Shown here: piece after piece, positions 5,937 through 46,636 of the stretch | How the letters are laid out: each line of letters opens with the position of its first letter | Position numbering within the stretch: position 1 is the first letter of the stretch | Source of the DNA: Phoronis australis | Taxonomy: Eukaryota > Animalia > Phoronida | Assembly (NCBI GenBank): GCA_002633005.1 | Contig: NMRA01000006.1 | Coordinates: 1,322,442-1,386,441, forward strand | Length of the DNA stretch: 64,000 nucleotides | Reading direction: 5' to 3' | Notes under the pieces: model-generated | Told to the model about the DNA's origin: nothing | Databases searched by the model: none | Seen by the model: the letters and a program-made list of their open reading frames with translations, nothing else | Made by a program: the position numbers and the translations under genes

Positions 5937-6134
5937 CTAAATATCCTGGGAAGAGGCACTTGTTGACGTCCCCTTGCGATCTGAGTAATCGCTACTCGAT
6001 GACCTCACCAGTCCTGGTTTCAAGCAAACGGAGTTCCCTGGAAAACTACAATACGTCTTGATCACCATTTGGGCAAACGTTGGATTATATCCCTCTTTAC
6101 CGACAAGAAAATATGTCTTCAGTTCTACCAAACC
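5937..6134 (-). CDS. PstS-domain receptor guanylyl cyclase-like gene, coding exon 5 (last)
   Basis: Acceptor ttttgttacag (AG at 6136-6135), phase 0. GLVELKTYFLVGKE matches the cyclase C-terminal KGKG.M.TYWL.G motif. TAG stop at 5939-5937. Confidence 0.8.
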   Translation of the reverse strand, partial: GLVELKTYFLVGKEGYNPTFAQMVIKTYCSFPGNSVCLKPGLVRSSSSDYSDRKGTSTSASSQDI

Positions 6135-6279
6135 CTGTAACAAAAACCAACACACATGTATTTGAATAGCACAATAAACGGAAAATAATAATTATGGCAA
6201 TTCATCTCATACATTTGCATAAAGCACGAGTTCACCTTAAAAAAATAATCAATCTTAACTGAAGAGAAATCTTTTCGAT

Positions 6280-7165
6280 TTATTGTCTCTAAACCATTCT
6301 CAACACAACTGTTCAAAATATTCCAGTCAGGTAACACAGGTCGCGAACAGTCTGCACAGGTACACGTCAAAATGCATTGTGCGAGAACAGACCATAAATC
6401 AATACAGTTGGTGCTAAAATGAACCAATGCTCAGCGTGATTCAACCGAATATGCTTAGCCTCCTTTATAAGGAGCCTAAGGGTGGCACCACCCCTGTCCA
6501 AGATCTGAACACTAGAGTAATCTATAATGTGAGCAGTGGTCAATGAATGATTAAGAACAGCACTGTGTGTGTCTTTGGAGTGTTCTTTGACTCTGACACT
6601 GAGAATGCTGTTGAAATGACAGGTTCTTACGCAACCACTCTGACAATGACGTGCGGATTTTTGTTATGGGCCTGAATTAAAGAAAGTATTTCTAAATATT
6701 TCCTTTTTGGCTAACTGTAATGTGTGGTCGACAGACAGGTTAAGAGAATGCTTGCAGCTATTGTTTCATGTTTGAAACTTGTAACAATTTTTAAACCTAT
6801 TAACAGACTCCTGTCATTGTCTAAGACTAAAACACCATAAAGCAATTCTCAAAGAAGTCATGTTGTGCACCAACTCAACTGTAATGAATGTGAACATTTT
6901 TACATTGGAACGACTAACAAGATTCTCAGCCTCAGAGTCAAAGAACACTCTAAAGACACACACACAGTGGTTTTCTTAATCACTTATTGATAACTGGTCA
7001 CACGTTGATTACTCTGGTGTTCAGATCTTGAGCACGGATGATGCCACCCTCAGGCTCCATATAAAGGAGGCTATGCCTATACGGTTGAATCACGCTGAGC
7101 GCTATCTCAACAGAAACATTGGTTCAGTTGAGCTTCAACTGTATTGATTTATGGTCTCTCCCCTC
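6280..7165 (+). mobile_element. Penelope-like retroelement remnant (GIY-YIG endonuclease 3' end), interrupted by a hAT insertion
   Basis: About 6846-7148 reads SQRSHVVHQLNCNECEHFYIGTTNKILSLRVKEH...HIKEAM...LNRNIGSVELQLY, a Penelope GIY-YIG signature. 6280-6375 is an inverted copy of ~10318-10400, which resumes after the hAT. Confidence 0.7.
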
Positions 7166-10100
7166 CAGTGCTGTAGTGGTAAAATTAGAGGTAAGTAGGC
7201 GCCCAGAGCCCAACGCATCACTTTGAGCACTGTACGTAGGCGCTACGCTCAAATGTCAAAAGGTGGTTGGCTGCGTCTATATGCACCTACGCCCCGCTAC
7301 AGCATTGCCCGACTCACAAAAATGTAGGCCTATTTTTGACTCAGGAGTGAGTGTTTAGAGTATGTACGGTAGCTGATCTAGGATATCGGGGAAAAGGGAT
7401 CCAACCACACATATTCGAAGGCAAAAGTAACGCCTAGAAATTATATTTGGTGGCGATTTTTAGTCGCCCGAGGGGGCGTGTCCTCGGGGCACTTCGATCT
7501 CCCTTTATCCACCTATGGTGTGACGCAATAAATGTTACTTTATCTTGAAATGTTAATAAAAAAATTCATTACTAGATGAGATTATTAATTAAATCAGTTT
7601 TGGCCACAATAAGATAAAAAACAGGACGATCGCCGCACAAATAAAAAAGTTCATGTTCAATTCAACGTTTCGTCTTTTCATTAGACATCAGGATCATATT
7701 TACAACAATTTAGGAAACAAGTGCCAACATACAGGTGAGGTTATGTTACTACGCACTCTTCAAATACTAATTACACGAACACGATGTTACACAAGCAACT
7801 GGTATTTAGTGAGCTTAACAAATAGTATGTACAATACGCACACGTGCATGCGTTAATGTATAATGCACCAACTTGGAGTGTGGGTTTCTTGCAAGCAACT
7901 GTTCTTATTTTTTAAGTTTGCAAAATACTAGGTACTAGTGACCAGTCCAAAGATAGAGTACTTAGTTACGGAATCCTCCACAAACTTATTTTATTGTCAG
8001 TTTTGTTCTTTTCCAAGTCACATGATCTCGATTGAGAACTATCAGCTGTTCCGTGTTGTCGAATCCACGTTTTGGCATAAGGTTGTGGGTCAAACATGGA
8101 AAGCGGGGGACCATTGACCTTGCCAAAAAGCAAGCTGGAGGTGGTTTCTAATAGCAAACAAGAACGAGAGTCTGTTACTGTCCGCGATTCATTTTGTTGA
8201 ATCCTCGTTCACATTCAGCTGTTCTGCAAGGAAGAGTCTTAATACAGAGGTCCATTTGTCGCAGAGCACTTGGTAGGTTATTCCCTCTAACCGTTTCCTC
8301 CATTTCTATGAACTCGCGCATTCCCCTGATTGCCGATGTGGCAACCAACCCAAACCGTTCGCAAAGCCGCCTGACTTCGTGCTGGCCATGTCTTATCCCG
8401 GATCCCAACTGCCGCGTTTTGGGTTCCAAAATGCTGAAACAAGAGCAAAATGACTGCTCATCATTGTCAAGTAAACGCTGTTCCAGCTTCACAACAACAC
8501 TTTGAATAAACTGACCAGGGTGTATGGCCACGGTAGTTCCTTTAAGGGTTTCCTTCAGTTCCAGTGACACAAACCTCTTCTCTTTAATGCATGTCAGTGC
8601 AGTGGCTAATGCCTGCTCGGGATTATCAACCATAGACTTGAGGACGCGAACCGTCCAACAAATAAGCTTGTTTGCTTGCGGTATTGTTGTGGTTCTGCAC
8701 TGTAGATCCACAGAAAGGCTTGACAGCTCTTCTAGCACATCATGCATCAGCGCAAGATTCTGAATGAGCCGGGTGGGACTTTCCAAGTATAGCAGTAATC
8801 CCCCCAAAAAATACTCCGATCACTTGAACGACGGTTTCCGTTTTCACTGGCTAACTCTAAAGCAGTGCCATGTCAAAAGTCTAGGGAAGCGTTCGCGTAA
8901 TGTTGCAACTCCAGAATGTTTTCCTGTCAAAACACTGGCGCCGTCACTTGCAAATGCTCCTGTAAATATTCCATCGTAAAACCACAGTGTTGTAGACTGT
9001 TAAGGAGGGACGCTTCAATGGATTCGGTAGTTTGTTGTTCAAGCTGGACAAGGTCAAGCATTATAAAAAGTGGATCGCTATCACCAATAGATGCTCTTAC
9101 GTAAATGGTCAGTGCTTACCGTTGTCGCTTCACCGACTAACACAACTTTCTTGCTGTTTTCTGCCATAACTGTACTGACGATTTTTTCGCGCATTTGCTT
9201 GGTTATGTGCTTGATTATGGACGTTGCACTGAAACTTGAATGGAGCGTAACACCCAAATTCAAACCATTCAGTTTCTGAAGATTTATGAGATGCTCGTGA
9301 TCGGTGAACGGACGATTTATTTGAATAAGTGAATATGCTGTTCTGAAGACGTTTTCCGTTGTGGTCTGCTCATGAGCTGCAACTTTAACCAATGTATTTT
9401 CAATTGCTCTTTACTTTTCGTTTCGTCAATACTTTGAGCAATGTTGTGGGCTTTAGAGCTCATATGACGACTGATTTCACTCCTGAACGACTTTTAAGTT
9501 TAGAAAGTCGGGAATCTCCAGCTGCTTCTATCAGAAAATGTGCCCACTTCGAAGATATTGATACGACACTTTCTTTCATCAAACCTAGGTCTAGTACAGT
9601 ATAGCAAGAAAAGCAACCCAGCTTTCCATCCTTGTGTCCCAACCAGGTATACTTTTTCTTGAATTCCATCCACTGATCGTAATTCCACACGCGTGGTCAC
9701 TGTGACGAGTCATCATCTGGATCACCTGCAGATATTTCCGTTTCAGACGTGGAGGGACCCGTTTCAGGAATACTAGTTTCAGCAAATGAGTCACTTTCAA
9801 CAGGAGGATTTGGTCCCGTGCTTTCTGATATCGGCATCTTCTTAAAATATTTCAGTACCGATTGGCAACAAGCTGATTGTCGTTTCATAGCGGCACAAAA
9901 TTTAAAAGCCCTCAATTAAACTTATAATTCGGTAGCAATAGTTCGTCTCGTTTGGACGAGTCCATTACAATGACCAGCTGCAGAAACCGCGTGCACTTAA
10001 AAGAGCAAAGTAAGACTGGTGCTGTTTTTGATGTTTGCCAATACCTCATCGAAGCATGCCTGGTGGTCGCGCGCGCCGAAATGTTCGGCAACAATGCTGT

Positions 10101-10305
10101 CGTCAGCGTAGCAGCGTATTGATGCCGTAAGCTAATCGTTTCAATACTACGCCCCACTTAACCGTCACGTACGGCGCGTTTAGGCGCTATCTTAAAAGTT
10201 AGAAAGGTGGTTGGCTGCGCCTACGTGCGCGTACGCCCCACTATGCCGAAACTTACGGTGGGTAGGCGTTACGCCTACGTGCGTCTACCCCCCACTACAG
10301 CACTG
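7166..10305 (-). mobile_element. hAT-superfamily DNA transposon with a decayed KIAA1586/ZNF862-like transposase
   Basis: TIRs cagtgctgtagtgg / ccactacagcactg; exact 8-bp TSD ctcccctc (7158-7165 and 10306-10313). Frameshifted minus-strand pieces: QWMEFKKKYTWL..LGCFSC, FRTAY...RPFTDHE.LI.LQKLNG, and the hAT dimerisation motif TAECERGFNKMN. Confidence 0.9.
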
Positions 10306-10941
10306 CTCCCCTCAGAGTACATTTTGACGTGTTCGCCACCTGTGTTACCTGACTGGAATATTTTGAACATGTGTGTTGAGAATAATTTAGTGACAATGAA
10401 CTAAAACGTCAATTAACATGTCGTTACTTACATATGCGCTGATTTTAAAGCTCGTACTCATATTTTGTCAAAAAACAAATGTGATCAAGAATCCTTTCCG
10501 TTCCTTATTTTATAATATTCATGAAATTACGCTTTGAGGGAAGACAGAGATACATCATTAAGCGCAACTATCCGCTGGTTCCAAGCCTTATGTAGGAGGG
10601 TACAACGCCTAGCTAAGGTTTGTAAACGATATATTCTGCGCCTCATCGTCAGTACAGGAAGGTTGGACAAGAAGCAGCTGCTCTTGGGGCTAAAATGCTT
10701 TTTGCTATAACATTGAAGCAAAATGTCACGCTCACCACGTGATTTTGTGGCTTTTTTCTTATTTAAGCTTAGGTGTAGGCCTAGTTATGGCTATGTCCAC
10801 TTAAAGATGCCCGTGTGGGGGTGTCTGTAGTGTTCGTAGGCGGTGGGTTTCTTGCTCCACCTTACCCTACACCCTTATCTTATCATTTCAGAAATGTAAT
10901 CGAAATAGGAGCAAGATAAGTTTTGAATTTAATTAATATAC

Positions 10942-11604
10942 CTGTTCTTGAATAGACAGTAGGTTGTTTTCCACGCAGACTTTTTCCTTGTACAAAATCT
11001 TCCAACCTGACATCTTATTCTTTAGCAGTTCGCATGTACTTTCCGACACCAATATCTTCCCTGTTGCAGATTTACTTTCTAAAAGACACGCTAACGTGAA
11101 AGTATCCCCAAAAACGGCGAAATGGGGAACTTTGAGCCCAACGACGGCTGCCACTACCGACCCGGTGTGTATAGCGATACGCATCTCCAGCTGTGTCCGC
11201 TTCCGTCCACGCATGTGAAACTTGTTAAACGCTGACTGGAAGTCGAGTGCCATGTTGCAACACTCTTCCGCGTGTGTCTGAATGCTCTCGTTGGGCACAC
11301 CAGAGATGTAAATGACGGTGTCAGCGATGCTCTCAATCTTTTTTATGTCGTGTCGCTCCGCGATCACATCCATAACGAGGTACATGTCGTTGACTAGCTC
11401 CATTATAGCGGACGGATGGTAAGTGGCCACTATTTCATTGAAGTTGACAGCACGGGCCACGAGGAGACTAGCCTGCGTGTATGACTTAGCTTGTACCGTT
11501 TGCCCCTCAGTGATCTGATCAGCGATAGTAGGTGGCAGTATGTCATGGAGGATGTTCTGTACACTCGTTATCGCTTCGGCTAACTCATCCACTTGCGAGT
11601 CTAC
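10942..11604 (-). CDS. PstS-domain receptor guanylyl cyclase-like gene, coding exon 4: signalling helix and class III cyclase domain (catalytically degenerate)
   Basis: Acceptor ccacag (11606-11605), donor GTATAT (10941-10940). LHDILPPTIADQI..GQTVQAKSY...KIESIAD...SGVP...HAEE...MALD...LEMRIAIHTGSVVAAVVGLKVP...FGDT aligns with receptor GC catalytic domains. Confidence 0.9.
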
Positions 11605-11884
11605 CTGTGGATGACAATCAACATAGCCTGCAACATTATATGCACGATTAGTTGTGAGTTTCAGTGTACGTGTTGAGACCGAGATCTTTCGTATGTGTTG
11701 CATATGCTCCAAAAATTAATTGATTCGCTGAAAGGCAGGTTTTCTGTTATTTGCTGAGTGTCGAGCCACTTCTAGCCTAAAATGATCATGTTCTCTCTGG
11801 ATCTTTTTGTTTGGGTACCTCAGTAATTCTAACGCTGTCACGAACAGCGAGGTATTTGTGACGATGCCGACAGTGGAAGTCGGG

Positions 11885-12268
11885 TGATGGTGGAGCCAGC
11901 AGGAATGGTGGTAGTGGTAGTAGTGATGGTGGAGGCAGCAGGAATGGTGGTAGTGGTAGTACTGATGGTGGAGGCAGCAGGAATGGTGGTAGTGGTAGTA
12001 CTGATGGTGGAGGCAGCAGGAAAGGTGGTAGTGGTAGTAGTGATGATGAAGACAGCGGTGGTGGTGATGGTAGTGGCAGGATGGTGTTGGTAGTGCTGGT
12101 GGTGGTAGAGATGATATGGTGATGATGATGATGATTATGACAGTAGTGACGGTGATGTGTTGACAATAGGGATGCTGGTAGTGGTAATGGTTGTATTGGT
12201 GGCGATGACGGTGATTATGATGATGGTGATGACGGTGATTATGATGATGATGATGACGGTGATTATGA

Positions 12269-12302
<34 letters not shown>

Positions 12303-12345
12303 GATGGCGACTTTAACAACGGTGCTGATGGCATTGACCAAAATG
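11885..12345. repeat. 39-bp minisatellite (~4 copies) grading into (GAT/GGT)n trinucleotide microsatellite, intronic
   Basis: Unit gatggtggaggcagcaggaatggtggtagtggtagta(c/g)t repeated, then long gat/ggt runs. Confidence 0.9.
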
Positions 12346-12417
12346 ATAATTACGATGTAGCGTAATGTATAACAAAATATTGCTAATTTTTTTCAATGGA
12401 GAAGCAAAGATAAGCAC

Positions 12418-12699
12418 TTTCTGCTCCAACTGAAGAACGTAACTCTCCAGCGCTTCCATCATAGTGTCGAGAACTGTTTTCTTTGAAGGATGTGCGTTAC
12501 TGAGGATTTTAAGCAGCTGGGAGAAGGACGGCCTTTTCAGGGGCTCTTCATCCCAAAGTCTAGTCAGTATGCTTCTGACTAAGCTGGGAGTCTCCGGCCG
12601 GATCATTGGCCTTAAGCTGGCCTTCTTGATCTCTTCGACAATGTCCTGGGGTTGGAGCTCATCGGCCATTTCTGAGTAAGGATCCTCTCTGGTGAAAAC
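12418..12699 (-). CDS. PstS-domain receptor guanylyl cyclase-like gene, coding exon 3: C-lobe of kinase-homology domain and start of coiled coil
   Basis: Acceptor tttcgcag (12701-12700), donor GTGCTT (12417-12416). VFTREDPY...RP...LWDEEPLKRPSF...VLDTMMEALESYVLQLEQK matches rGC CW.E.P..RP.F and ILD.....ME.Y...LE. Confidence 0.88.
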
Positions 12700-15543
12700 C
12701 TGCGAAAGAAAAAGTATTTGAATTCTTAACAGTTACGGTCCTCCCCCTAGTGACGACCAGTATCCAAGTACTCAGGACGCCGCAATTTTACCCCTCTTCC
12801 CCTGTCGACCATTCTCCCGGTTGCCGCCATTTCCTTCTCCTTCTACAAATTCTGCCGCACCGCTATCAGCAAATAAACAATTTGTAAGGAGTTACAGCAA
12901 ACTTTAGAACCCCTGCATTTTTTGCTATTTATTGGGATGTATTATTACTACTATTATATTATTTCTTAATAGGAGAACTCTACGTAGACCTACCAACCTT
13001 AAAATCCGAAACGTACTACAGACGACAAAAACAATACTTGAGGAAATGCGATATCATTCCGTCTTTTTATACCATTAATAGTCATGTGTTCTGATTTTGC
13101 TCCATTTTGTATCAAGCATGTGGACGATACGTTATTTCGCAGTGTGGACGCCGCTGCACATGCTCAAGTTATTCTTCACATGTAACAGTGATCATTGGGT
13201 CTTAAACATATCCACCGAAAAGGAAAATGGCATCTTTCTAAACATAACGCTAAATTGTCGTAAGAGACCGTCCGGAGTTGGTATATGGTGCAACTCCGGA
13301 CGGTATGGGGTCAACAGAAAACCACAGTTCAACTGTGAGTCTACACCAATGTGATAAACGATAGTAGTTCTACTTACTGCGTCAGCTGCAGGTGTGCTTA
13401 TCTCTTTTATGACACACAAAGTGTGACTGGGCAAAGCGTTTTCAAAATAATGTGGATAAATCAATGGAGTGTGAGACCCCTGAGGTCCCTGTCAAGTCCT
13501 CACGACATTTCTACGTTATGCAACCTTTTCTATTGCACCAGAGTGGTGTTAGTGGACTGATTTAAATACATTAATGAATTCCACTCAAACTTAAAGCAGT
13601 TGTGCATCCTTTGGCAGGTAAACGCCGATCAATTCGACACCTACATCTAAATAAATTGATTTGTACACTCCACTATTGCCCGATTCACTGCATCTTCCCG
13701 CGCTTATTCTAGCAATTCATCGTTCGCCATCCCGCTTCCTTTTATTTCATTTCATAGCCGAAAGAAACGTTGCTGAGTTTGAAGTTTATTTTTGAACATC
13801 CTCGATTTCCCCGAAATTAACTAATGAAACAGTCACGGTGAGACCTAGCACAGTAGTGTTTGCAATAAGCCAATGCGAGGTTGCGTTTGTCTTGCCATTG
13901 ATAAAGCCTATGGCGGAAGCAAGGGATTATGGAAAACGTATATGAATGAGTATTCAAATCGCCAGGTCGCATTTTGCGACCTAGCCAAAATCCCAGGTCG
14001 CATTTTCAAAATCCAGCTCGCATTTATAAATCCAGGTCGCAAACATTTCCCGCCATTTTTACGCTCCAAAATTGATTTTTTAGATCACTGAGAAAATGTT
14101 TATATTATGCTCTTACTTACAGCGTTAAATACTGACAAGTCTCAGATCGTAAAATTGAGTTCTTTCATGTAGGTACGGTATTACTGTTCTTCACGACCGC
14201 CATTGAAAGGCTCTAAAGCACAAGGCAAGTTGCCGACGTGAAAGTTGAATCAGTGCTCTCTTTCTGACACGTGCATTCGAGTAGCTAAGTTTGCGATGTG
14301 AAAAGGGAGAAAATGCCCGTTGAAAAAGTATCCGCGATTTTGCTATGTCTGACCTGCTACTGCCTGTCATCAAAGTCGTTAAAGATCCAAACTAACTCGG
14401 AGTGCAAATTCGCTCCACTTTTTTTCGCAACCCAAATTTTGCAACTTAACTCGACGTTTGAAAAACATCTGTCAAAAAAAAAGCGTGAAACCATGCTCTA
14501 ACCGAATGACGTATTTGGATGCGCGAGAACAATTCAGTGCAAATTTCACAACAAAAGTGTGGTACTTAGGCTGTTTACGTATTCAATAATTAGTTTTTTA
14601 TGAAATTAATAGCTTCGAAATACTTCCCGACTCCGTGCGGGATTCCATCGCGTAATTCGAGTTTGCTCCTCAATACCTTCCAACTACGGGAAAAATAGGT
14701 CAGTCACGAAACGACACGCAAGTCACTAGTGTTAAGTTTCTTTCGGAGGTATGAATCAAAGCCGGGTTTGGTTTTTACATATTGAGAAAAGACGTTTTTG
14801 AAGACTGAATTTGTTTTGTAAAATGAGAGTGACACACTATACAGGCTGCTGTGTCAATTTTAAACCACGCGCGGTCGTTTGTAGTGCGCTATGATTTGCG
14901 CTAGCCTGAACTGTGGGCGCTAAATTGGAAATTCTCAAAGGTTGAGGGGGGAACGCATAGAAAATCAGTGAGCGCTTATTACAAAACACTTCAAAGGTAG
15001 GGAGTAGGTTTGTGCGTGAGCATTGTCGCTAACCTGAGTGTTTGCGGTAATAAGATATTAAAAGACTGCAATGGTAAGAAATGGTGTAATAATACGATTT
15101 TGAGAGACAAACTCCATCGAGTATAGGGGTGACTTTCTGGATATCGTTACCACCTACACTGTACCCTTTTTAGCCACCCGGTATAACTTTCTTTTTAATT
15201 ACCCGCTTCAGCCGGAACAAGATTGTTTCTATTAGAGTCTGGAAATTTTACGGTGACGGTGGTCCGGGGAGCGAAAACTTGCCAGGGGGGTGTATGAAGA
15301 AAAGAATAAAATGTTCGCTGACCACAATTTCACGTCTCGTACCCGTTTAGTGGCAATAGCTGGCTACGGGCATAGAATATAGGGTTTAGGAAACATCGAC
15401 CGCGGGAAACATCGTCACACGAAATATCAGTTCTGTGTTATATCGGTCCCGGGTAATATCGCAAAGCATCGGGTCTTATATAACCGCCGGGAATCTATGA
15501 GTTCATTTTCAAATAAACCACTGGCACGTAACCGGGTGCTGAA

Positions 15544-16685
15544 AGGCGAAGGCAACCTTATTTCATGTCTTTTTTAACAAAAATAAGGTTCGTTGATTAT
15601 CCCAGACATATTTTTTACTTATTTACTGCTCTTCGTAATTTAATTAGTTACTTGTTGTCTAATCCGGAAGTGACGTTTTGGGAGGCAAGAATTTCGCGCC
15701 AATTTCTTTTCATATAATCTGACTATGAGAGCAGTCGAGTCAGTCATTGTTCTACCTCGGTTGTGATAAGTTCGGTCGTCATTTGCTTTTGCTTACGAGT
15801 CAGTCAACATACTACGCTGTTGCTGCGTACTGGGGTGTACTCATTATCGTCTCACGTACAGAGGAAGAACTGTCCCACTTGCCCGAGTGTCCCGCGACTC
15901 ACTCCCACTGGAGGGTGATCTGAGCACCCAAACTGCTTACATCCCACCGCGTGACCCCCTCGCCAAACACCTGGCACTTTCTAAATATACAAGTCCACAA
16001 TAAACTTATCAAACTTAGGCTCACCGATCTGTTCATTGGATGACGAACTGTACCTTTTCACTGGGTGTCGAACTGGGCCTGTATTCACTCCCACTACTCA
16101 ACATCGATGCAGGGCTGCTTACAGGCTCTGGGCTAGAGACAACAGCACAGTGCGAATCACTGCTAGTTCCCGGAGGGACCTTCATCAATTCAGCGTACAC
16201 ATCTCTGTCGTAATCTGACGGCAGAAAATGCTTGCCACACTCGGTAACCCTCCACTGCTTTCTACGTTGTGTGGACGGGTAGCGCTGCGTTCTTCACATG
16301 AACGAGCTAGCCAAGTACGGCGAAGTGTGTCATCCTTCGGAAAGCGACGCAAGGTACCCAGGCAAAACGCGTGTGAGACGATAATGAGTACATCCCGGCA
16401 CGCAGCAACAGCGTGGCATGTTGACTGACTTGTAAACAAAAGCAAACGACGATCGAACTTATCACAACTGAGGTAGACCAATGACTGACTCGACAGCTCT
16501 CACAGTCAGACTATAATGAAAAGAAATCTGCGCGAAACTCTTGCCTCCCAAAACGTCACTTCCGGAGTAGAGGACGAGAAATTAATCAAATTACGAAAAG
16601 CTGTAATTAAGTGAAAAATGTGTCTGGGATAATCAACGAACCTTATTTTTGCTAGAAGTGACATGAAAAAAGGTTGCCTTCGCCT
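15544..16685 (-). mobile_element. Kolobok-type non-autonomous transposon with a THAP remnant and ~310-bp TIRs (copy 1)
   Basis: Termini aggcgaaggcaacctt ... aaggttgccttcgcct with degenerate TTAA flanks. Minus strand MPRCCCVPGC...RRFPKDDTLRRTW...CGKHF is a THAP C2CH domain. Closely similar to 32277-33593. Confidence 0.8.
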
Positions 16686-17573
16686 TAAACAGAGCCAAGT
16701 CGGTATACTCTTTCATTTAGGGCTGTCGCTGTTCTCTATTGATGTGCAGCTTTGAAGTGGTGAGCACGCTTGAGTTCACGCACTTGAATCGCTGCAGTAG
16801 GCCTACACTTTACGTTGGCACCAACGTGTGAAAGTCAAATCATATTTCGCGCACGTAGCCCCAGAAAAGGGTTTAGAGAATTTCTTGGTAGCTGAAAGTA
16901 GACGTGGCCGTCGTTTGGCGATTAATAGGGTTGTCATTTTCACTTTGGCTGTCTTATGATATAAAAAAACGAGACACATCTCTAAGTCACGATTGTCTGG
17001 CTGGACCGCTTGCGCGTTAACAACGGGACCGAGCATTGCCGCAGTGCCGGCAATATCATGGATGTTGTCGTGGATATGTGGATATTTGGTACATGTAATA
17101 AGAAGATCTTACGCGGAAAATAAAAATTTTTGTCCACCACAAAGTTTGGTAAGTTGATCGCTTAAGATTTAGTAGAAACACCGCCGGCCCGAATCCGGAA
17201 ATTTGCAAAAGTGGCCGAAAATGTTAGCCAACAAAACGAGTCAAAGATCGATTCTGCATATCCCATGTTTACGCGACTTGCTTACAAGTCATCGGGAGGG
17301 CTGTTCTCGGTTAGTGTTCTTTTGAACTTGGATTTGGTAACAACCAAATAACGGTCGGATTAACAAGAGTTGCTTTATATTTACCAGGTATCTGCCGAGA
17401 AGTGTAAAAACTCAGTTCGCATACGTTGGGAATTCCAGGTCGCATTTAGCGACTTGATACGAGATGACAAAAATCTCAGCCCGCATTTCCAAATTTCAGG
17501 TCGCAAATGCGACCTGCAGCTCGTTATGTCAAGCCCTGGTAATTGTGTTTCTTCCAACTTTTGCTTTCCTTAC

Positions 17574-19233
17574 CTCCTGTATTAAAACACCAAAACTGTA
17601 TAAGTCTGACTGCTTGGTTGTCATTACTCTGTCACACAGGAGGAATTCTGGCGCAGTCCAGAACAACTCTTTGGCAAAGAGGTTAGGATGCTCATTTTGG
17701 TCGTACAGAGCCACGCAGGGCGGCGTCAATGGTGGCTGTAAGTTTTGGACTTCGAGCAGTTTCGTGAACTCCCAATCCTTGATCTTTACAGTCCACTTTT
17801 GGTCGACGGCGCAGGCAGCTGCTCGGAGGTACCCGTGTACAATGTCCCTCGAATGTAAATACAACATGCCGCACGCAACGTCTTGTATGAGCGAAAACTT
17901 GAAGTTGTTATCGAACGAAAACTTTTCGTTTGTTAAAATGTCTTTAAGTATTCCCTTAGATGAGTATTCACGTACCAAATATATCTGGTCGCTATACGTT
18001 GTCAGGCCGTAGAATAATTGTACGTTTGTGTGCTTTACGTTATTTCTCATCCACAAAACAGTAGCCATGGTGTCCCTATATAAAGTACCGATGTCTCCCA
18101 AGTCTATCTCTTTCAGCACTACCAGCGTCTCCTTCCACCTGCCAACGACGTCGTCGTTCTCGTCAATGGAACTTCCACCAATGCTCGCCTTCTCCAAGGC
18201 ATCACCGGTATGAGCAAGGTCAGTTTTGTCGGCAAAGGCTTGATGAGTGGCCGCCTCGGAGGTCCATAGCGTGTGCTTCTGAACCTTTACAAAACGTATA
18301 TCTGACGCAGGGATAAGCCACTCTTGACTTTGTATTGCTCTGGCAAGTTTCATTTGCTTTTGTATCAGATAGCAAAGTATAAGTGCCATAGCGACACCGA
18401 TGACGGAGGAAATTGCTGCAACTGGGACACGCCATGCTTGCGTCGACGCATATTCTTTGCTTTTTTGTGTGAGAACGAGTTGATAGACACTTTGTCCTTG
18501 GCAGGCATAGTTTCTAAACATGTAGTCACGGACTCGATTATTGAAAGATTTGCTGAACTCGGTATAGTTGAACATTTTGATAATGTCGTTGGCTTCTGAT
18601 GTTGTCATAAACCATTCGACGAATCTCGCCAGTTCCGTTGCGCGGTCGCAATCACATGACGATTTAGCGCGAATGACCATGAACAGTACGCTCACTAAGG
18701 GATAGGAATCGTTACCGGAAGCATCTATAGTTTTGTTCAATGTTGGTCTTTGGTCGGGCTGTATTTGGACTACGCTTTCGACCGTATGTCTCAAGATGTC
18801 GTTATGTGGCCACACTCTATGGCCATTCCTGTTTATTAGCATGGCAATCGAAATTCCAGAAGTATGAGCCACGGCACATGGTAGATACCCAATGGTGTAT
18901 TCGACAGAACTCAGAATACCTACAACACCCACGCTACCTTTGGCGTAGTACGCTGCCACGCCTTCCTTCCAACTGTTTGCATCCGAGAACGTTCCCTGTG
19001 TCCAATTTTTACTGAATTTGTCCAACGCGTAAGTGAAGCCGCGCGTAGTACCCGAAGAATGTTTTCTCACCACAGTTCTTATTCTCTTCTTAGGTAACGG
19101 TGTTATTGTGTTATGTTTCGATATCGCGTAGGTGTTCCACCACTGGATGTGGCCGTTGAAAATGCCCGCGATGGCCTCGCGCGAAAGAGTTAAAGAGGAG
19201 CGATTCGGTAAATTATACCCGACAACTGTCGCC
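17574..19233 (-). CDS. PstS-domain receptor guanylyl cyclase-like gene, coding exon 2: rest of PstS-like domain, TM helix and most of the kinase-homology domain
   Basis: Acceptor tttgcag (19235-19234, phase 2), donor GTAAGG (17573-17572). PstS motifs VVGYNLP, LSREAIAGIFNGHIQWW, VVRKHSSGTT, KGSVGV, IGY, SYPLVS. TM VPVAAISSVIGVAMALILCYLI (~18364-18429). rGC-type pseudokinase motifs GMLYLHS..VHGYL, KIKDWEF, WTAPEFL, SDLYSFGVLIQE. Confidence 0.92.
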
Positions 19234-20226
19234 CTGCAAAACATAACGGATGTCATTCATGGAATGGCGTGCATCTACAAATCCTAACTTTTCTAGTTCG
19301 TGTTTAGTTCACATAGCTTATTAACCAGTATTTTTTGAAACAGTTGGTCAAAAACAGTGGGGTCATTTTCAGTAAGTAGGTGAAACAAGTGAAAATCCTG
19401 GATCCGCCCCTGTGTCAAACCTGACGTCAGAAATCGTTGGTCATGGTAGCATCGGTTTACTGTGGTAAAAATTATAAGGACCGGCCAGTCCAGAATACCT
19501 AAGCATCGCAATGGATGTTCTGGAGGGCCCTGGAGTTTTCCTAGCAACGGAAGTAAACTCCTTTCATGGCCAGGAACTTTCTGAGACTAACTTTGTGGGG
19601 GTAGTACCTAATTTAAGTGGTCTATTTTTATTTAGAGTTAAGTTGGGCAGGACCTTATCAAGAAATCTGTAAATTCAACCAAATATCTACAAAAAGATTG
19701 GTTTTGACTCAAGAAAAGTACGTACTTTCTAAATTTAGAAATTATGTAGAAATTGATTCTTGATTTTAGACAAGTCTGCCATACACGTATCATTTTGATA
19801 CATTCAGTATCAGCAACGTTAATTTACATAATTGTAAACATTCAACCTAAAATCTTAAAAATTCTATCACATTTTTCTAGATCATCGTTTCGTTTTCATT
19901 TAATGCAAATTTAAAGTTTTCCATAAAAATTCATTTTTGATAGCCCGTGATGCAAAAGAGGAAATTTTTAAGATAATTCCTAACAACGTTTTGGTGAACA
20001 TTGAAAAACATACATAAAGTATGTGAAAGTTCATATGAATCCAAGCAGCCATTTCTGAGATGTGATGATCAAAGGTTAGCCAAACTTGAACATTTTTTTC
20101 TAGGGTCCTGCATAACCTTAAGCTGGAGGAAATGCAGTTAAAATCTCGTTCGCTTGCTGAAAATTATCAGCGACTCACTTTTTGGAGCAACTTCCACTGA
20201 AAATTTTTTAACATTTGATTACCTAC

Positions 20227-20579
20227 CCGATGAAAATTGGAATGTAGAGGAACTTGTCGCTGTAATCATGAGTCACTACCATGGGATCATTTGATAAAGA
20301 AAAGTCAATATTGCAGTCCGAAAATGTGTCCTCGTTTAGCATTTTAAAACCAGCCGTGCTTCCAACTGATTTGTATCGAAGCATTACTTTTCTGTATTGT
20401 CTTCTAAACGCCATGAACGCCGCCGCCATACTACTGAAGGCGGTCGCGCCAAATGTGGCGCCCGCCCCAGAGATGTCCGTGTAATCCGTAGGTTCCCTAC
20501 CATGGTGCCCAAAATTATTACCACTTGCTATACTGCCTTTTGTTAACACGCCCATGAGACATAAAAGCTTCAGGTTCAT
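20227..20579 (-). CDS. PstS-domain receptor guanylyl cyclase-like gene, coding exon 1: putative signal peptide and PstS N-terminal lobe
   Basis: MNLKLLCLMGVL... then ISGAGATF, YKSVGSTAG, IDFSLSNDP, IPIFIG, matching PstS TGAGATFP, YQ.IGS.GG, VDFGASDAP, FP.VIG. Donor GG|GTAGGT (phase 2) matches the exon 2 acceptor phase. Confidence 0.88.
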
Positions 20580-21260
20580 TTGATACCTGCAACAAATACA
20601 AAGGTACTGTAGATGATTCGCTTTTGGGTTCGAAGTCTAATCTGCCGTCTCTTCTATGTATCTTTGTCTTTGATGACGACCTCGTTCTTTGAATTATTAT
20701 ACTAGAAACAAATACTGGAACTTCTCAGATGCTACCATTCTCATGACCACAGTCATAAACCAATCTTGCGAGTGAACCATTCTGCTATCTAACGAACAAC
20801 TGTCATTGTTGCTGAGAGGTTGCGAGCAATGTTACATCGGCTGTCAATGACGATATCGTCATAATTACCTCGAAATGACTAAGTTAGTTTGCCAGTTATT
20901 CATACCTGTCGACTTTCCGTCGTTTGGGTACCTTTGAATAATATGGGATTGTCTCGAATGTGACTTTCCCACTGCTCTCGTTGAGAATCTCGGTTCACGC
21001 CTTTTTTGTAATGAATAGCTTCGTATGTTGAATCCTGAGATATCTATTACATTCTGTAATGTATCTGACTACTTCAGGGCGTTGATAACAATGCAGTCAT
21101 TGAAATGCGAGCAGATAGTGTGCTAACAAATGGTATTTTGCATTTTTTTCATCTGCAAACTTCACAAAATAGAAACGTGCGTTTAAAGCAATGAGTAATT
21201 TTGTTACGCAGTTAATCAGATTGTTGTCAAGTAAAGCTTGATCATAGATTATAGACAGCA

Positions 21261-22740
21261 GGGCCCGGTTGCGTAAAAGTCTGTATAGTTATCCGGCGTA
21301 TAAATTTAGGTTGCATAAAACTTGGATAAGGTTCGGATAACTATCCGGTGGATATCGATGTTATACGGCGGATAGCAAGAAAGGATACCATATAAGGCAA
21401 TACCCATAACTCTTGTAACCTTGGTACAGACAAAATGGCTGACGTAAGAAGAAGCTCAACTAACTGGACAAAAATGAGATCAAGCTTCTGATTGAACTTG
21501 CTGAGTTAAATTTACAAGGAATTAATTGCAAGTTCAGTCAGAAGGTGACAAATGTGGAGAACTCCGTTTGAGAGGGAATTGCTAAAAGAAGAGCTACGAT
21601 GCCAAAGAGTAGTGGAGACATATGGTGTCTGGGGCGAGAGCTTCGCAGAACCACCTGCGAAAAGAAGTGAGAAAAACGGGAGGAGGATCTCGCCCCAAAC
21701 CCCTGGAAAAAGCAAAAGAAAAAATAATACCCCTCTTTGCTGTTACGCCAGCTGATTCAGTGGTCTGAACAAATCCATAAAGTCAGGTATGAATTAACAT
21801 GTGAGACATTATTATGGGTTTTGATACATTATCAACAATCTTCACCAGAAAGCTCTCTACTTTTCACTTTTCTTCAAAATTAAAACATTAAACTCTCTTA
21901 AGTGTTCAATAATTATTTGCTACGTGGCGTTCATTGTTTTGAAAAAAGGTCAACCAAGTTTGTAATTTAGGTCAAAGGGTCACATGACATCTTAGGCACA
22001 CCAACATTTAAATTCAAGCGGTAACACCTGAAAATTTGGTTCCTACAGTATGTTAAGAGCATCCCTCTGAGCCCACTAGTGCTATAAATTGTCAAATGTA
22101 ACGAACTGGTAGGCGTATTGGCTTGCTTTTGTCTACGTCACCGCGAGAACCACCTTTTCATTCAAACAGCTGCGAATAACACCCGCACGCAATGGTGTTC
22201 TATTCAGTCCCTTATTCAATACAACCTTATGTTGTTTGTGCTGGGATCTCGCGGTGACGCAACATGGCGCGAAAAGGCAGCTTCATTTATCATTTGACGG
22301 GCTTACATTTGTGTGATTGAACTCGCGTTTCCTTATTTTACTAAGGCTTTGCTAGGACTATCTATTTAGCCCAATACATCTAAAATAACAAAATCCCGTT
22401 GAAGTTAGGCTTTAAGGTTGGCACAGAGAAATTTCTCTTCGTGGCAGGTTTGATATTTTCATCCACTATACCTCAAATAAAACGAGTACGTTCTCATCCA
22501 AAACAAAACTTCTTTCCGAGCTCTTCATCGGTGTATTTGTTCAGAGGATCAGCACGTTCTCTCCCATGCATTCATTATGATTTGTATAAAAGTAATCCGA
22601 TGTCTGATGGTCTGTAACTTTATACGGCGGATAGTGTTAGTTAATTGTACGGTGGATAACTCTATGTGGCGTATAAAAAGTTGTACGCCGGATAAGGACT
22701 TTACCTGGCGTATAAGGCCTTATATGCCGGATAATTCGTG
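21261..22740. mobile_element. Internally deleted PIF/Harbinger element
   Basis: Left end gggcccggttgc with subterminal tat.cggcg/ggata repeats at both ends. Myb/SANT-like start MADVRRSSTNWT...IKLLIELAE on + (~21436); HARBI1-like N-terminus RERADPLNKYTDEELGKKF...KPATKRNFSVP on - (~22420-22565). Confidence 0.65.
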
Positions 22741-36540: not shown

Positions 36541-36804
36541 CTGTGAAATAAAAATGAAAATATCTGAAAGTTTTAACAACTAGCAGTACACTCAACACTC
36601 TTATTTCTAAACCAAGTCACTTTAAGAAACCGCGGTACCACTGAAAACCCATTTTGAATCAAAAAGGAATTAAAACAAATTTGCACTTTTTGAATGAAGG
36701 CCTAGCGCAAATTTCCTTTACAATATCGGGATTAGTGACGTTATAAATACTATGAGTACGTCGACCAAATGTTATTTCAGTCACGTGACTGCCACCATAG
36801 TTAC

Positions 36805-36989
36805 CATGGTGAAGGACGTTGTGTTCTTGGAGGACTCTCATTAGGCACACTGCTGTCTTGCGGTCGTCAACTTCCCTCTGTTCCAACAACCAATCTACCG
36901 CTTCGTTGCCAACAAAGCATGTCGTGTACGTCCGAAAATGATAGCGACGATCTTTGATCAGCTCTCTGACAGATTGGTGCATTCGTAAC
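36805..36989 (-). CDS. DEPTOR: DEPTOR-like gene, exon 2: first DEP domain
   Basis: Acceptor atatttag (phase 2), donor G|GTAACT; LRMHQSVRELIKDRRYHFRTYTTCFVGNEAVDWLLEQREVDDRKTAVCLMRVLQEHNVLHH vs DEPTOR LRLHEEKVIKDRRHHLKTYPNCFVAKELIDWL. Confidence 0.93.
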
Positions 36990-37443
36990 CTAAATATGCG
37001 AACTGCTCGTGAATGCATTTGGCTGCGAGCGCGAAGGTTCGGGTTAGAATACGCGCTAGGGCTGCTTTCAAAAGAAAATCGCCTTTCTTGACAAAAATGT
37101 CAATTTATTAGAGATTCACTTTCTACAGTAGTTGAAGGAGAAACCCCTTATCAGATGATATTTTATTATGTCCTCCACAGAAATATCCATTTAGTTCATT
37201 TAATTGTTCCTTAGACACTTACTCATTCCTAAATAAATTGAATTGTAAAAGTGGGACATTGGCTCAGATGTGGCGATTTCTCAAAAACCTGACGGAACAA
37301 AGTTGCATTCCGTTTTCTCTCGTAATGTGATAAGAAAAGCTCAATAATATCAGTTACCTATTAGCGAGTGTGAAATATTTTCCCTAGATTTTGACCAGAG
37401 AATGCGCATATACGACTAACTGAAAAATCTTGCTTTGGTTTAC

Positions 37444-44827: not shown

Positions 44828-46636
44828 CAGTGGCGGATCTAGGATATCACAAGGGGGGGGNNNNNNNNNNNNNNNNNNNNNNNNNNNNNNNNNNNNNNNN
44901 NNNNNNNNNNNNNNNNNNNNNNNNNNNNNNNNNNNNNNNNNNNNNNNNNNNNNNNNNNNNNNNNNNNNNNNNNNNNNNNNNNNNNNNNNNNNNNNNNNNN
45001 NNNNNNNNNNNNNNNNNNNNNNNNNNNNNNNNNNNNNNNNNNNNNNNNNNNNNNNNNNNNNNNNNNNNNNNNNNNNNNNNNNNNNNNNNNNNNNNNNNNN
45101 NNNNNNNNNNNNNNNNNNNNNNNNNNNNNNNNNNNNNNNNNNNNNNNNNNNNNNNNNNNNNNNNNNNNNNNNNNNNNNNNNNNNNNNNNNNNNNNNNNNN
45201 NNNNNNNNNNNNNNNNNNNNNNNNNNNNNNNNNNNNNNNNNNNNNNNNNNNNNNNNNNNNNNNNNNNNNNNNNNNNNNNNNNNNNNNNNNNNNNNNNNNN
45301 NNNNNNNNNNNNNNNNNNNNNNNNNNNNNNNNNNNNNNNNNNNNNNNNNNNNNNNNNNNNNNNNNNNNNNNNNNNNNNNNNNNNNNNNNNNNNNNNNNNN
45401 NNNNNNNNNNNNNNNNNNNNNNNNNNNNNNNNNNNNNNNNNNNNNNNNNNNNNNNNNNNNNNNNNNNNNNNNNNNNNNNNNNNNNNNNNNNNNNNNNNNN
45501 NNNNNNNNNNNNNNNNNNNNNNNNNNNNNNNNNNNNNNNNNNNNNNNNNNNNNNNNNNNNNNNNNNNNNNNNNNNNNNNNNNNNNNNNNNNNNNNNNNNN
45601 NNNNNNNNNNNNNNNNNNNNNNNNNNNNNNNNNNNNNNNNNNNNNNNNNNNNNNNNNNNNNNNNNNNNNNNNNNNNNNNNNNNNNNNNNNNNNNNNNNNN
45701 NNNNNNNNNNNNNNNNNNNNNNNNNNNNNNNNNNNNNNNNNNNNNNNNNNNNNNNNNNNNNNNNNNNNNNNNNNNNNNNNGGGGGGGGGGGGGGGCCCGG
45801 GCCCCCTGGGCCCCCCCTAAATCCGCCTATGACCCCAGTAGGCTAATTAATATTATACGGCTTAAACAAGATTTAAATGTGTGCAATTTTAGTGTGTTTG
45901 GGTGGGGGCTCACATTCAATTGCAAGTGTCAAATTCGGAACACGGCGCAATCGTGACGGAACTATGGCTAAGTATAGGCTCTCCCGCGATATCACAGACG
46001 ACCGGCAGTGGCGCTGCACACTACGACTCCGTTTCCGTCGTCTTCTTCACTATGCAATGAAGAAAATTACTTCATTTTTTAAAGAAAAATGGAATCTGAG
46101 TAACGATGCAAAAACAGAATCTGCTGGTAAGATGTGAATTTTAATAGAAGCCTTAGTGAATCACTCAGAAACTCATAATCTTCTCTTTTTCAAACCTTAA
46201 CTTAAGACGATTTCCAGAGCATTCGCGTCATTAACACAAAAACGGATTTGGTCTTTTGGGCAGGTGAAGACTATTTTAAATACAACAAATTTGTTACGAA
46301 CTGATTGCACAAAATATAGAAAGTGTAATAAACATTACAAAAAGAATTAGGTTTTGCGCGCAAACGCTGTGGATCATAAACAAGTAAGTCTCTTAGAATC
46401 AAATTACGAGTGAAAGCGTGGTGGTGCTGTAGTAAAGCACGCGCCCTCTATCCGCCAGGTCGTGAGTTCGAATTTGTGGTCATTGCATTTTTTCAAGTTT
46501 GACACGTTCTCCGTGTTTTTTTTCTTGGATAATACTTCAGGAATCAAGAAAAATGCGCATCTACAATCGTGCTTTGCGCAAATGTTTACAGACAAAATGT
46601 TGGGCCCCCCTTGTGATATCCTAGATCCGCCACTGG
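44828..46636. mobile_element. hAT-like MITE termini spanning the assembly gap
   Basis: cagtggcggatctaggatatcacaagggggg at 44828 and its inverse cccccttgtgatatcctagatccgcccactg ending ~46636. No TSD confirmed and the interior is partly Ns. Confidence 0.45.

Follow-up and report, generated by a model that had tools for sequence, protein, structure and literature searches.

A PstS-type ectodomain on a predicted receptor guanylyl cyclase-like protein of Phoronis australis, a divergent member of a candidate protostome phosphate receptor family

Introduction

Animal receptor guanylyl cyclases (GCs), represented here by NPR1/GC-A (9bcv) and retinal GC2 (P0001), possess a single transmembrane (TM) helix, a kinase-homology domain lacking the HRD aspartate, a coiled coil, and a class III cyclase domain, and P0001 bears an ANF_receptor (PF01094) ectodomain. 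The gene considered in this study lies in a 64,000-nt stretch of the Phoronis australis (Phoronida) genome (GCA_002633005.1, contig NMRA01000006.1, positions 1,322,442-1,386,441, forward strand), the whole of which is referred to as the window. Its product shares the intracellular layout of these receptors, whereas its ectodomain belongs to the PBP_like_2/PstS type and its cyclase domain is devoid of the first metal-binding Asp, the catalytic Asn, the catalytic Arg, and the guanine-specifying Cys. With a probability of about 0.5, it is read as a predicted single-pass surface receptor, a divergent member of a wider family, that likely binds extracellular phosphate, with a pocket whose retuning likely makes it weaker or less selective, and that likely signals with no production of cyclic GMP (cGMP).

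The ligand cleft of bacterial PstS is formed by eight residues, among which a key aspartate discriminates against sulfate and arsenate; the affinity is nanomolar for Asp-type proteins and micromolar for one Ser-type protein (available parts of PMC5381212 and PMC13614923). The Phoronis domain resembles PstS (E. coli 2abh/1ixh; TIGR00975) in fold and at seven of the eight contact positions, all eight of which are kept by the family overall. It differs in being part of a receptor rather than of an ATP-binding cassette (ABC) transporter, in scoring below the equivalog cut-off, in carrying glycosylation sequons and a family-specific Cys pair, and in having Asn and His in place of D56 and D137.

The nearest described layout is that of the Acanthamoeba/giant-virus kinase-cyclase-kinase receptors, in which an ectodomain, one TM helix, and kinase and cyclase domains occur on each chain; in the main text of that report, as far as available, the ectodomain is not identified as PstS (Clarke et al. 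2013, PMC4053784). The viral proteins of Mollivirus (P0113) and Pandoravirus (P0114) have in common with the Phoronis protein an ectodomain, one TM helix, and kinase and cyclase domains on a single chain, and PBP_like_2 was detected on the Mollivirus one. However, two kinases flank their cyclase, their ectodomain is a tandem, and their domains fall outside the animal clade, whereas the Phoronis protein has a single pseudokinase and no kinase after the cyclase.

PstS-like ectodomains on signalling proteins were also found in a jakobid (PstS-TM-cyclase, P0139), an ancyromonad (PstS-kinase-cyclase, P0094 and P0136), and a euglenid (PstS-cyclase, P0105); these differ from the Phoronis protein in their intracellular modules, and their cyclases are 23-39% identical to those of the intact animal members. 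The early-branching fungi Calcarisporiella and Gorgonomyces encode class C-type G protein-coupled receptors (GPCRs; 7tm_3) that carry a PstS ectodomain whose pocket is conserved (P0141 and P0146). These proteins, again unlike the Phoronis one in the intracellular module, are candidate fungal phosphate GPCRs. No functional study of other eukaryotic PstS-fold sensors was found in the literature searched. Likewise, no description of a receptor GC with a PstS ectodomain was found in the full-text literature, a scope that leaves aside supplements and most subscription papers, and the family is not described in the available parts of PMC10445921, PMC4053784, PMC1435932, PMC5381212, PMC13614923, PMC11528361, PMC3280997, and PMC8050422. 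The family is thus apparently undescribed, although a mention in the supplement of a genome paper is possible.

Gene structure and transcripts

The gene comprises five minus-strand coding exons (20579-20227, 19233-17574, 12699-12418, 11604-10942, and 6134-5937) with GT donors and AG acceptors. Spliced together, they give an open reading frame (ORF) of 3156 nt, corresponding to 1051 codons and a TAG stop, without internal stops. The splice sites, phases, and frame proposed in the original prediction, which was made from the sequence alone, were verified; an upstream non-coding exon had been overlooked there. The exons are as follows, from 5' to 3' of the gene.

20906..21425, minus strand: upstream non-coding exon; joints from donor 20906 to 20586 (12/10 reads in X1/X2) and to 19233 (7/0 reads); stranded depth bin 20775-21425
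20227..20586, minus strand: first coding exon; ATG at 20579, putative signal peptide (20579-20520), and the N-terminal part of the PstS domain with T42, F43, S74, and N97
17574..19233, minus strand: second coding exon; the remaining PstS domain (R174, H176, S178, G179, T180; Cys313, Cys362), the TM helix, and most of the kinase-homology domain
12418..12699, minus strand: third coding exon; the kinase-homology domain ends and the coiled coil begins here
10942..11604, minus strand: fourth coding exon; coiled coil and class III cyclase-homology domain (about 11499-10990)
5937..6134, minus strand: last coding exon; C-terminal tail and TAG stop

Transcription was assessed in RNA-seq samples bearing the same species label, namely runs X1, X2, and X3 and the contig set X4 (the nature of the samples is coded). 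Reads in X1 and X2 spanned the junctions 20227/19233 (27 and 24, respectively), 17574/12699 (35 and 35), 12418/11604 (35 and 31), and 10942/6134 (41 and 33). All four joints, each with 24-41 reads per run, were stranded in the direction consistent with minus-strand RNA, and the exon depth in these two runs was roughly 12-50. The reads connect the exons, so that the ectodomain and the cyclase belong to a single transcript, as had been predicted. No junctions of this gene were present in run X3 or in contig set X4; therefore, its expression varies between samples.

The acceptor of the upstream exon at 20586 lies 7 bases before the ATG, and position 21425 marks the edge of the covered bin only, the 5' end of this exon not being fixed. 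Since an in-frame stop occurs within this exon 33 codons upstream of the ATG, position 20579 is the start of translation. A minor splice form (20906/19233), represented by 7 X1 reads and by no X2 read, leaves out the first coding exon, and its product would be devoid of the signal peptide and of the N-lobe contacts, which make up half of the pocket.

Domain architecture

A signal-like N-terminus, a PstS domain, a TM helix, a pseudokinase, a coiled coil, and a class III cyclase domain follow one another on one chain. The Pfam search assigned PBP_like_2 to both ectodomain exons (E 3.6e-7 and 1e-12), PK_Tyr_Ser-Thr (E 3.2e-24), and Guanylate_cyc (E 8.3e-37, 127 bits), exactly the three families anticipated. 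The NCBIfam PstS model TIGR00975 matched the second exon alone with E 3.4e-38 and 131.5 bits and the other exon with 22 bits. These scores are below the equivalog cut-off of 205, and the domain is fused to a receptor rather than serving an ABC transporter. No type I (ANF_receptor) ectodomain was detected, as only PBP_like_2 matches were obtained up to E 10, bar one chance-level row. Together with the hydropathy profile, these results bear out the architecture put forward in the original prediction, and all of its quoted sequence motifs that were checked are present.

The positions of the extracellular, membrane, and kinase-homology parts are given below.

18519..20477, minus strand: PstS-like ectodomain with a type II periplasmic-binding fold (residues about 35-356), split by a family-wide phase-2 intron
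18363..18428, minus strand: TM helix (residues about 387-408); hydropathy peak 2.4 and a helix in the model
12487..18149, minus strand: kinase-homology (pseudokinase) domain (residues about 480-742); HGY in place of HRD

The TM peak is the single strong one in the protein, and a signal peptide is plausible by hydropathy. The PstS-like ectodomain contains five glycosylation sequons. Cys313 and Cys362 fall on two columns that are occupied by Cys in 115 of 117 family rows and by other residues in E. coli PstS, and they probably form a disulfide. The replacement of HRD by HGY is as in receptor GCs; within the family, the His is found in 89 of 90 rows and the Gly in 85 of 90.

Ectodomain fold and phosphate pocket

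All 19 of 19 PDB sequence matches to the second-exon part of the ectodomain were phosphate-binding proteins. The AlphaFold model of the Phoronis protein, which spans residues 119-429 only (predicted local distance difference test, pLDDT, 83.8), had E. coli PstS as its top fold match (E 2.3e-16). For the complete ectodomain of the homolog P0077 (pLDDT 89), the values were E 5e-29 and a target TM-score of 0.85 for PstS, compared with 1.4e-8 for the molybdate binder ModA. The ectodomain therefore has a type II periplasmic-binding fold nearest to PstS, in agreement with the expected structural match.

The phosphate contacts of E. coli PstS, which we take to be T10, F11, S38, D56, R135, S139, G140, and T141 (numbering verified on the sequence), correspond to T42, F43, S74, N97, R174, S178, G179, and T180 in the Phoronis protein, so that seven of eight positions are kept. 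The selectivity aspartate (D56) is replaced by Asn97 and the salt-bridge aspartate (D137) by His176; the original prediction was right as to a PstS-like domain but overlooked the change of these two pocket residues. In the family (E. coli numbering), the N-lobe position T10 is occupied by Ser in 23 of 23 rows, while F11 is kept in 21/23, S38 in 28/29, and D56 in 28/29. In the second part of the pocket, R135 is conserved in 95/97, D137 in 86/97, S139 in 84/97, G140 in 87/96, and T141, as Thr or Ser, in 89/97. The family pocket is close to invariant, and the Phoronis copy is an outlier.

Several observations weigh against the reading of the Phoronis copy as a phosphate receptor with a retuned pocket. 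It is the sole protein with Asn at the D56 position among 30 N-lobe rows, it departs from near-invariant profile sites including P15, Y19, W22, and G63, and its branch in the ectodomain tree is long (1.06). The double change D56N and D137H is without structural precedent among the matches seen. Both N97 (codon at 20291) and H176 (codon at 19061) are single-base changes that are unconfirmed in reads and absent among the 40 variants listed, 386 further ones being unlisted. In addition, Asp98 adjoins N97, and the D56 alignment could be one residue off.

These changes raise the question of whether the Phoronis pocket has switched to another ligand (sulfate, some other oxyanion, a phosphorylated metabolite, or a peptide), with phosphate still being read by the rest of the family; such a switch is considered unlikely. 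The residue replaced by Asn is the aspartate credited with the exclusion of sulfate and arsenate, the D137 position has become His, and one S-type PstS was stabilised by beta-glycerophosphate (available material of PMC5381212 and PMC13614923). However, the other contact positions are kept, and S-type PstS proteins lacking this Asp retain a preference for phosphate, SphX being unresponsive to sulfate, according to the parts of the sources available. According to the PDB titles, E. coli PstS variants D56N and D137N/G/T were each crystallised with phosphate, of which the D56N structure likewise speaks against a switch. For a receptor that still binds phosphate, the Asn/His pocket may move the sensing range upward. 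Body fluid would saturate a nanomolar pocket, which would be suited to the sensing of outside water.

Cyclase-homology domain

The cyclase exon had NPR1/GC-A (9bcv) as the best PDB sequence match (E 5.5e-35). In class III cyclases, one chain supplies two Asp and the other supplies Asn and Arg. The columns of these four residues were located from NPR1 and retinal GC2. In comparison with these two proteins, the Phoronis domain has R816 for the first metal Asp, T935 for the catalytic Asn, L939 for the catalytic Arg, and A928 for the guanine Cys, while D860 and the guanine-specifying E856 are retained. Having lost three of the four catalytic residues, it is predicted to make no cGMP. Since the Phoronis copy completes neither half-site, the homodimer and a heterodimer are both predicted to be dead. 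The assignment to class III in the original prediction thus holds, but the predicted inactivity had been missed. A later loss of catalysis in the Phoronis copy was considered and found unsupported, 33 of 69 invariant columns being kept compared with 32 in the best member of the large dead clade.

Distribution of the family

When the second exon served as the query of a full HMMER search, 113 proteins had E values of 1e-30 or below; of the 53 matches to a profile, 34 were family members. Two word-index searches meant to retrieve longer relatives yielded 0 and 1 matches and nothing useful. Among 202 proteins, 120 besides the Phoronis copy have the ectodomain followed by a kinase, and 71 of these also bear a cyclase domain of at least 100 bits. 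Not part of this count are 10 proteins that are protist, viral, or unassigned; fragments and close orthologs are included, and most of the rows are without a name. The homologue search suggested earlier recovered the same architecture repeatedly: the gene is not a one-off, belonging instead to a protostome-wide family within which the Phoronis copy is divergent. Public records label members, for example, as 'atrial natriuretic peptide receptor-like'.

The named members come from molluscs (gastropods, bivalves, and a chiton), annelids (Owenia, Helobdella, and Paralvinella), the nemerteans Tubulanus and Lineus, Priapulus, and the tardigrade Paramacrobiotus. Deuterostomes, arthropods, nematodes, and cnidarians were not represented among the named members, which does not amount to absence, many rows being unnamed. 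In the Atlas, one cluster of 57 proteins combines PBP_like_2 with a kinase and is mostly from Mollusca where the taxon is known.

Over 800-1000 columns, collinear from the ectodomain to the cyclase, the Phoronis copy is 29-35% identical to its best 15 relatives. This low identity, the long branches, the two pocket changes, and the dead cyclase would fit a paralog in decay, with both the pocket and the cyclase drifting and with no part in ligand sensing. Such decay is nevertheless regarded as improbable, given an open frame of 1051 codons, clean splicing, expression in two of the three raw-read runs, and the retention of nearly all invariant ectodomain columns, including the Cys pair.

The catalytic residues were compared in 62 cyclase rows with all seven diagnostic columns filled, the Phoronis protein included. 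All four catalytic residues are kept in 10 of the 62, among which Owenia P0010 and Priapulus P0028 are named, and the intact members retain all seven diagnostic residues. The intact Owenia receptor has the accession CAH1793096.1, and the Priapulus model XP_014672517.1 is devoid of the N-lobe. The other 52 are degenerate, and none of the 24 named mollusc proteins is intact. Both metal Asp are present, without Asn and/or Arg, in P0002, P0159, P0075, and P0062; unlike the Phoronis copy, these proteins could serve as alpha-like subunits beside an intact partner.

The Phoronis copy might instead be an inhibitory or decoy subunit. It would either dimerise by way of its coiled coil with an intact paralog or a different receptor GC and so lower cGMP, or bind the ligand and clear it. 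The coiled coil and the cyclase fold (127 bits) are kept, intact members exist, with Priapulus having one intact model and one degenerate or incomplete one, and a pair with neither half-site complete would be silent. This is judged rather unlikely: the absence of intact forms among the named mollusc proteins leaves many dead forms without a known intact family partner, and no second copy or paralog of the gene was found within the window by tblastn with seven proteins.

Phylogeny and origin

The trees were quick LG+G4 reconstructions with support from the Shimodaira-Hasegawa-like approximate likelihood ratio test (SH-aLRT) only. In the tree of 103 ectodomains, the 24 prokaryote-type domains (4 named), including that of E. 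coli, formed their own clade with SH-aLRT 100, and the animal clade comprised 44 rows, including the Phoronis copy (SH-aLRT 97), with two divergent family rows outside it. The nearest domains outside the animal clade included that of the jakobid, one fungal domain, and unnamed ones (SH-aLRT 89-90). The prokaryote sampling was small and the root was not inferred; hence, no donor is claimed. Since the ectodomain groups with eukaryotic rather than prokaryotic PstS-like domains, it does not appear to derive from a recent bacterial transfer. The term 'bacterial-type' used for it originally is therefore apt for the fold and not for a recent donor, the nearest non-animal relatives being eukaryotic sensor domains.

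A phase-2 intron in the PstS domain is common to the family, including the Phoronis copy. At its junction, Gly is found in 26 of 27 spliced proteins, whereas 19 of 21 unspliced ORFs have Arg or Ser, as an AG acceptor gives. This shared intron position, the junction reads, and the separate clade of all 24 prokaryote-type domains already contradict bacterial contamination, a mis-join, or recent horizontal transfer as the source of the PstS part. That explanation, prompted by the bacterial PstS proteins among the top named structural matches, is extremely improbable; moreover, the C-terminal part of PstS, the TM helix, and the kinase share one exon.

The intact family cyclases are about 60% identical to mammalian retinal GC, compared with the 23-39% to protist PstS-cyclases, which supports the proposed ectodomain swap onto an animal receptor-GC chassis. 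In the simplest history, a eukaryotic PstS-fold sensor domain would have been put on this chassis in the protostome ancestor or earlier. With the cyclase columns included, most of the dead forms grouped together (46 rows, support 99). A tree without these columns, built from 47 of 72 rows after near-duplicates and incomplete rows were left out, required at least five changes to account for the dead forms and left the Phoronis protein unplaced. A single origin of the dead cyclases was rejected, as the support was lost without the cyclase columns, and the grouping is likely a long-branch effect.

Proposed function

In the Phoronis protein, the anion would close the cleft of the two-lobed ectodomain, and the closure would shift the TM helices of the dimer, as the ligand does in receptor GCs. 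The pseudokinase, the coiled coil, and the pseudo-cyclase would then relay the signal as a scaffold, the production of cGMP being impossible by prediction. The ancestral member was presumably a phosphate-gated cGMP producer, and the intact receptors still present in Owenia and Priapulus would have cGMP as their output. Ligand sensing appears to have been kept without cGMP output, because 52 of the 62 cyclases, including all of the named mollusc ones, are degenerate while the pocket is conserved. As forms with a conserved pocket and a dead cyclase dominate in molluscs, where no intact member is named, output through a scaffold is preferred to a brake on a partner.

For the family as a whole, the odds appear about even that protostomes have carried a dedicated surface receptor for inorganic phosphate since before the split of Spiralia and Ecdysozoa, that the intact Owenia and Priapulus proteins make cGMP, that in most lineages the cyclase was lost, on several occasions, and signalling takes another route, and that the Phoronis copy was retuned to higher phosphate or to another oxyanion. 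Surface phosphate sensing by animal cells was called open in 2012 (PMC3280997, available part), and the family provides a concrete candidate. The intact Owenia and Priapulus receptors make an assay of cGMP versus phosphate possible, the Phoronis copy being a weaker test case. That cyclase activity was lost repeatedly while the pocket was conserved suggests that the receptor-GC chassis has an output independent of cGMP. The family may bear on the mineralisation of shells and tubes as well as on feeding and chemosensation in invertebrates. It would also provide a genetically encoded sensor that converts phosphate into cGMP. The analysis of the Phoronis window contributes a copy whose pocket is altered, together with splice-junction evidence, intact family members, and an intron common to the family.

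Other features of the window

The intron between the third and fourth coding exons contains tandem repeats at 11884-12306 (a 39-base unit repeated 5 times and a 24-base unit repeated 3.5 times), which yield a His-rich false ORF. A 214-codon open stretch without a Pfam match is located in the last intron (8175-8819, minus strand); its end resembles what we take to be a hAT-transposase motif. An N assembly gap at about 44860-45780 (922 N in the window) is distant from the gene. Elsewhere on the minus strand, positions 55-501 contain an exon of a neurolysin/thimet oligopeptidase-like gene (PDB matches with E 3e-5), and positions 36659-37099 a DEP-domain exon with DEPTOR as the best match (E 2e-23).

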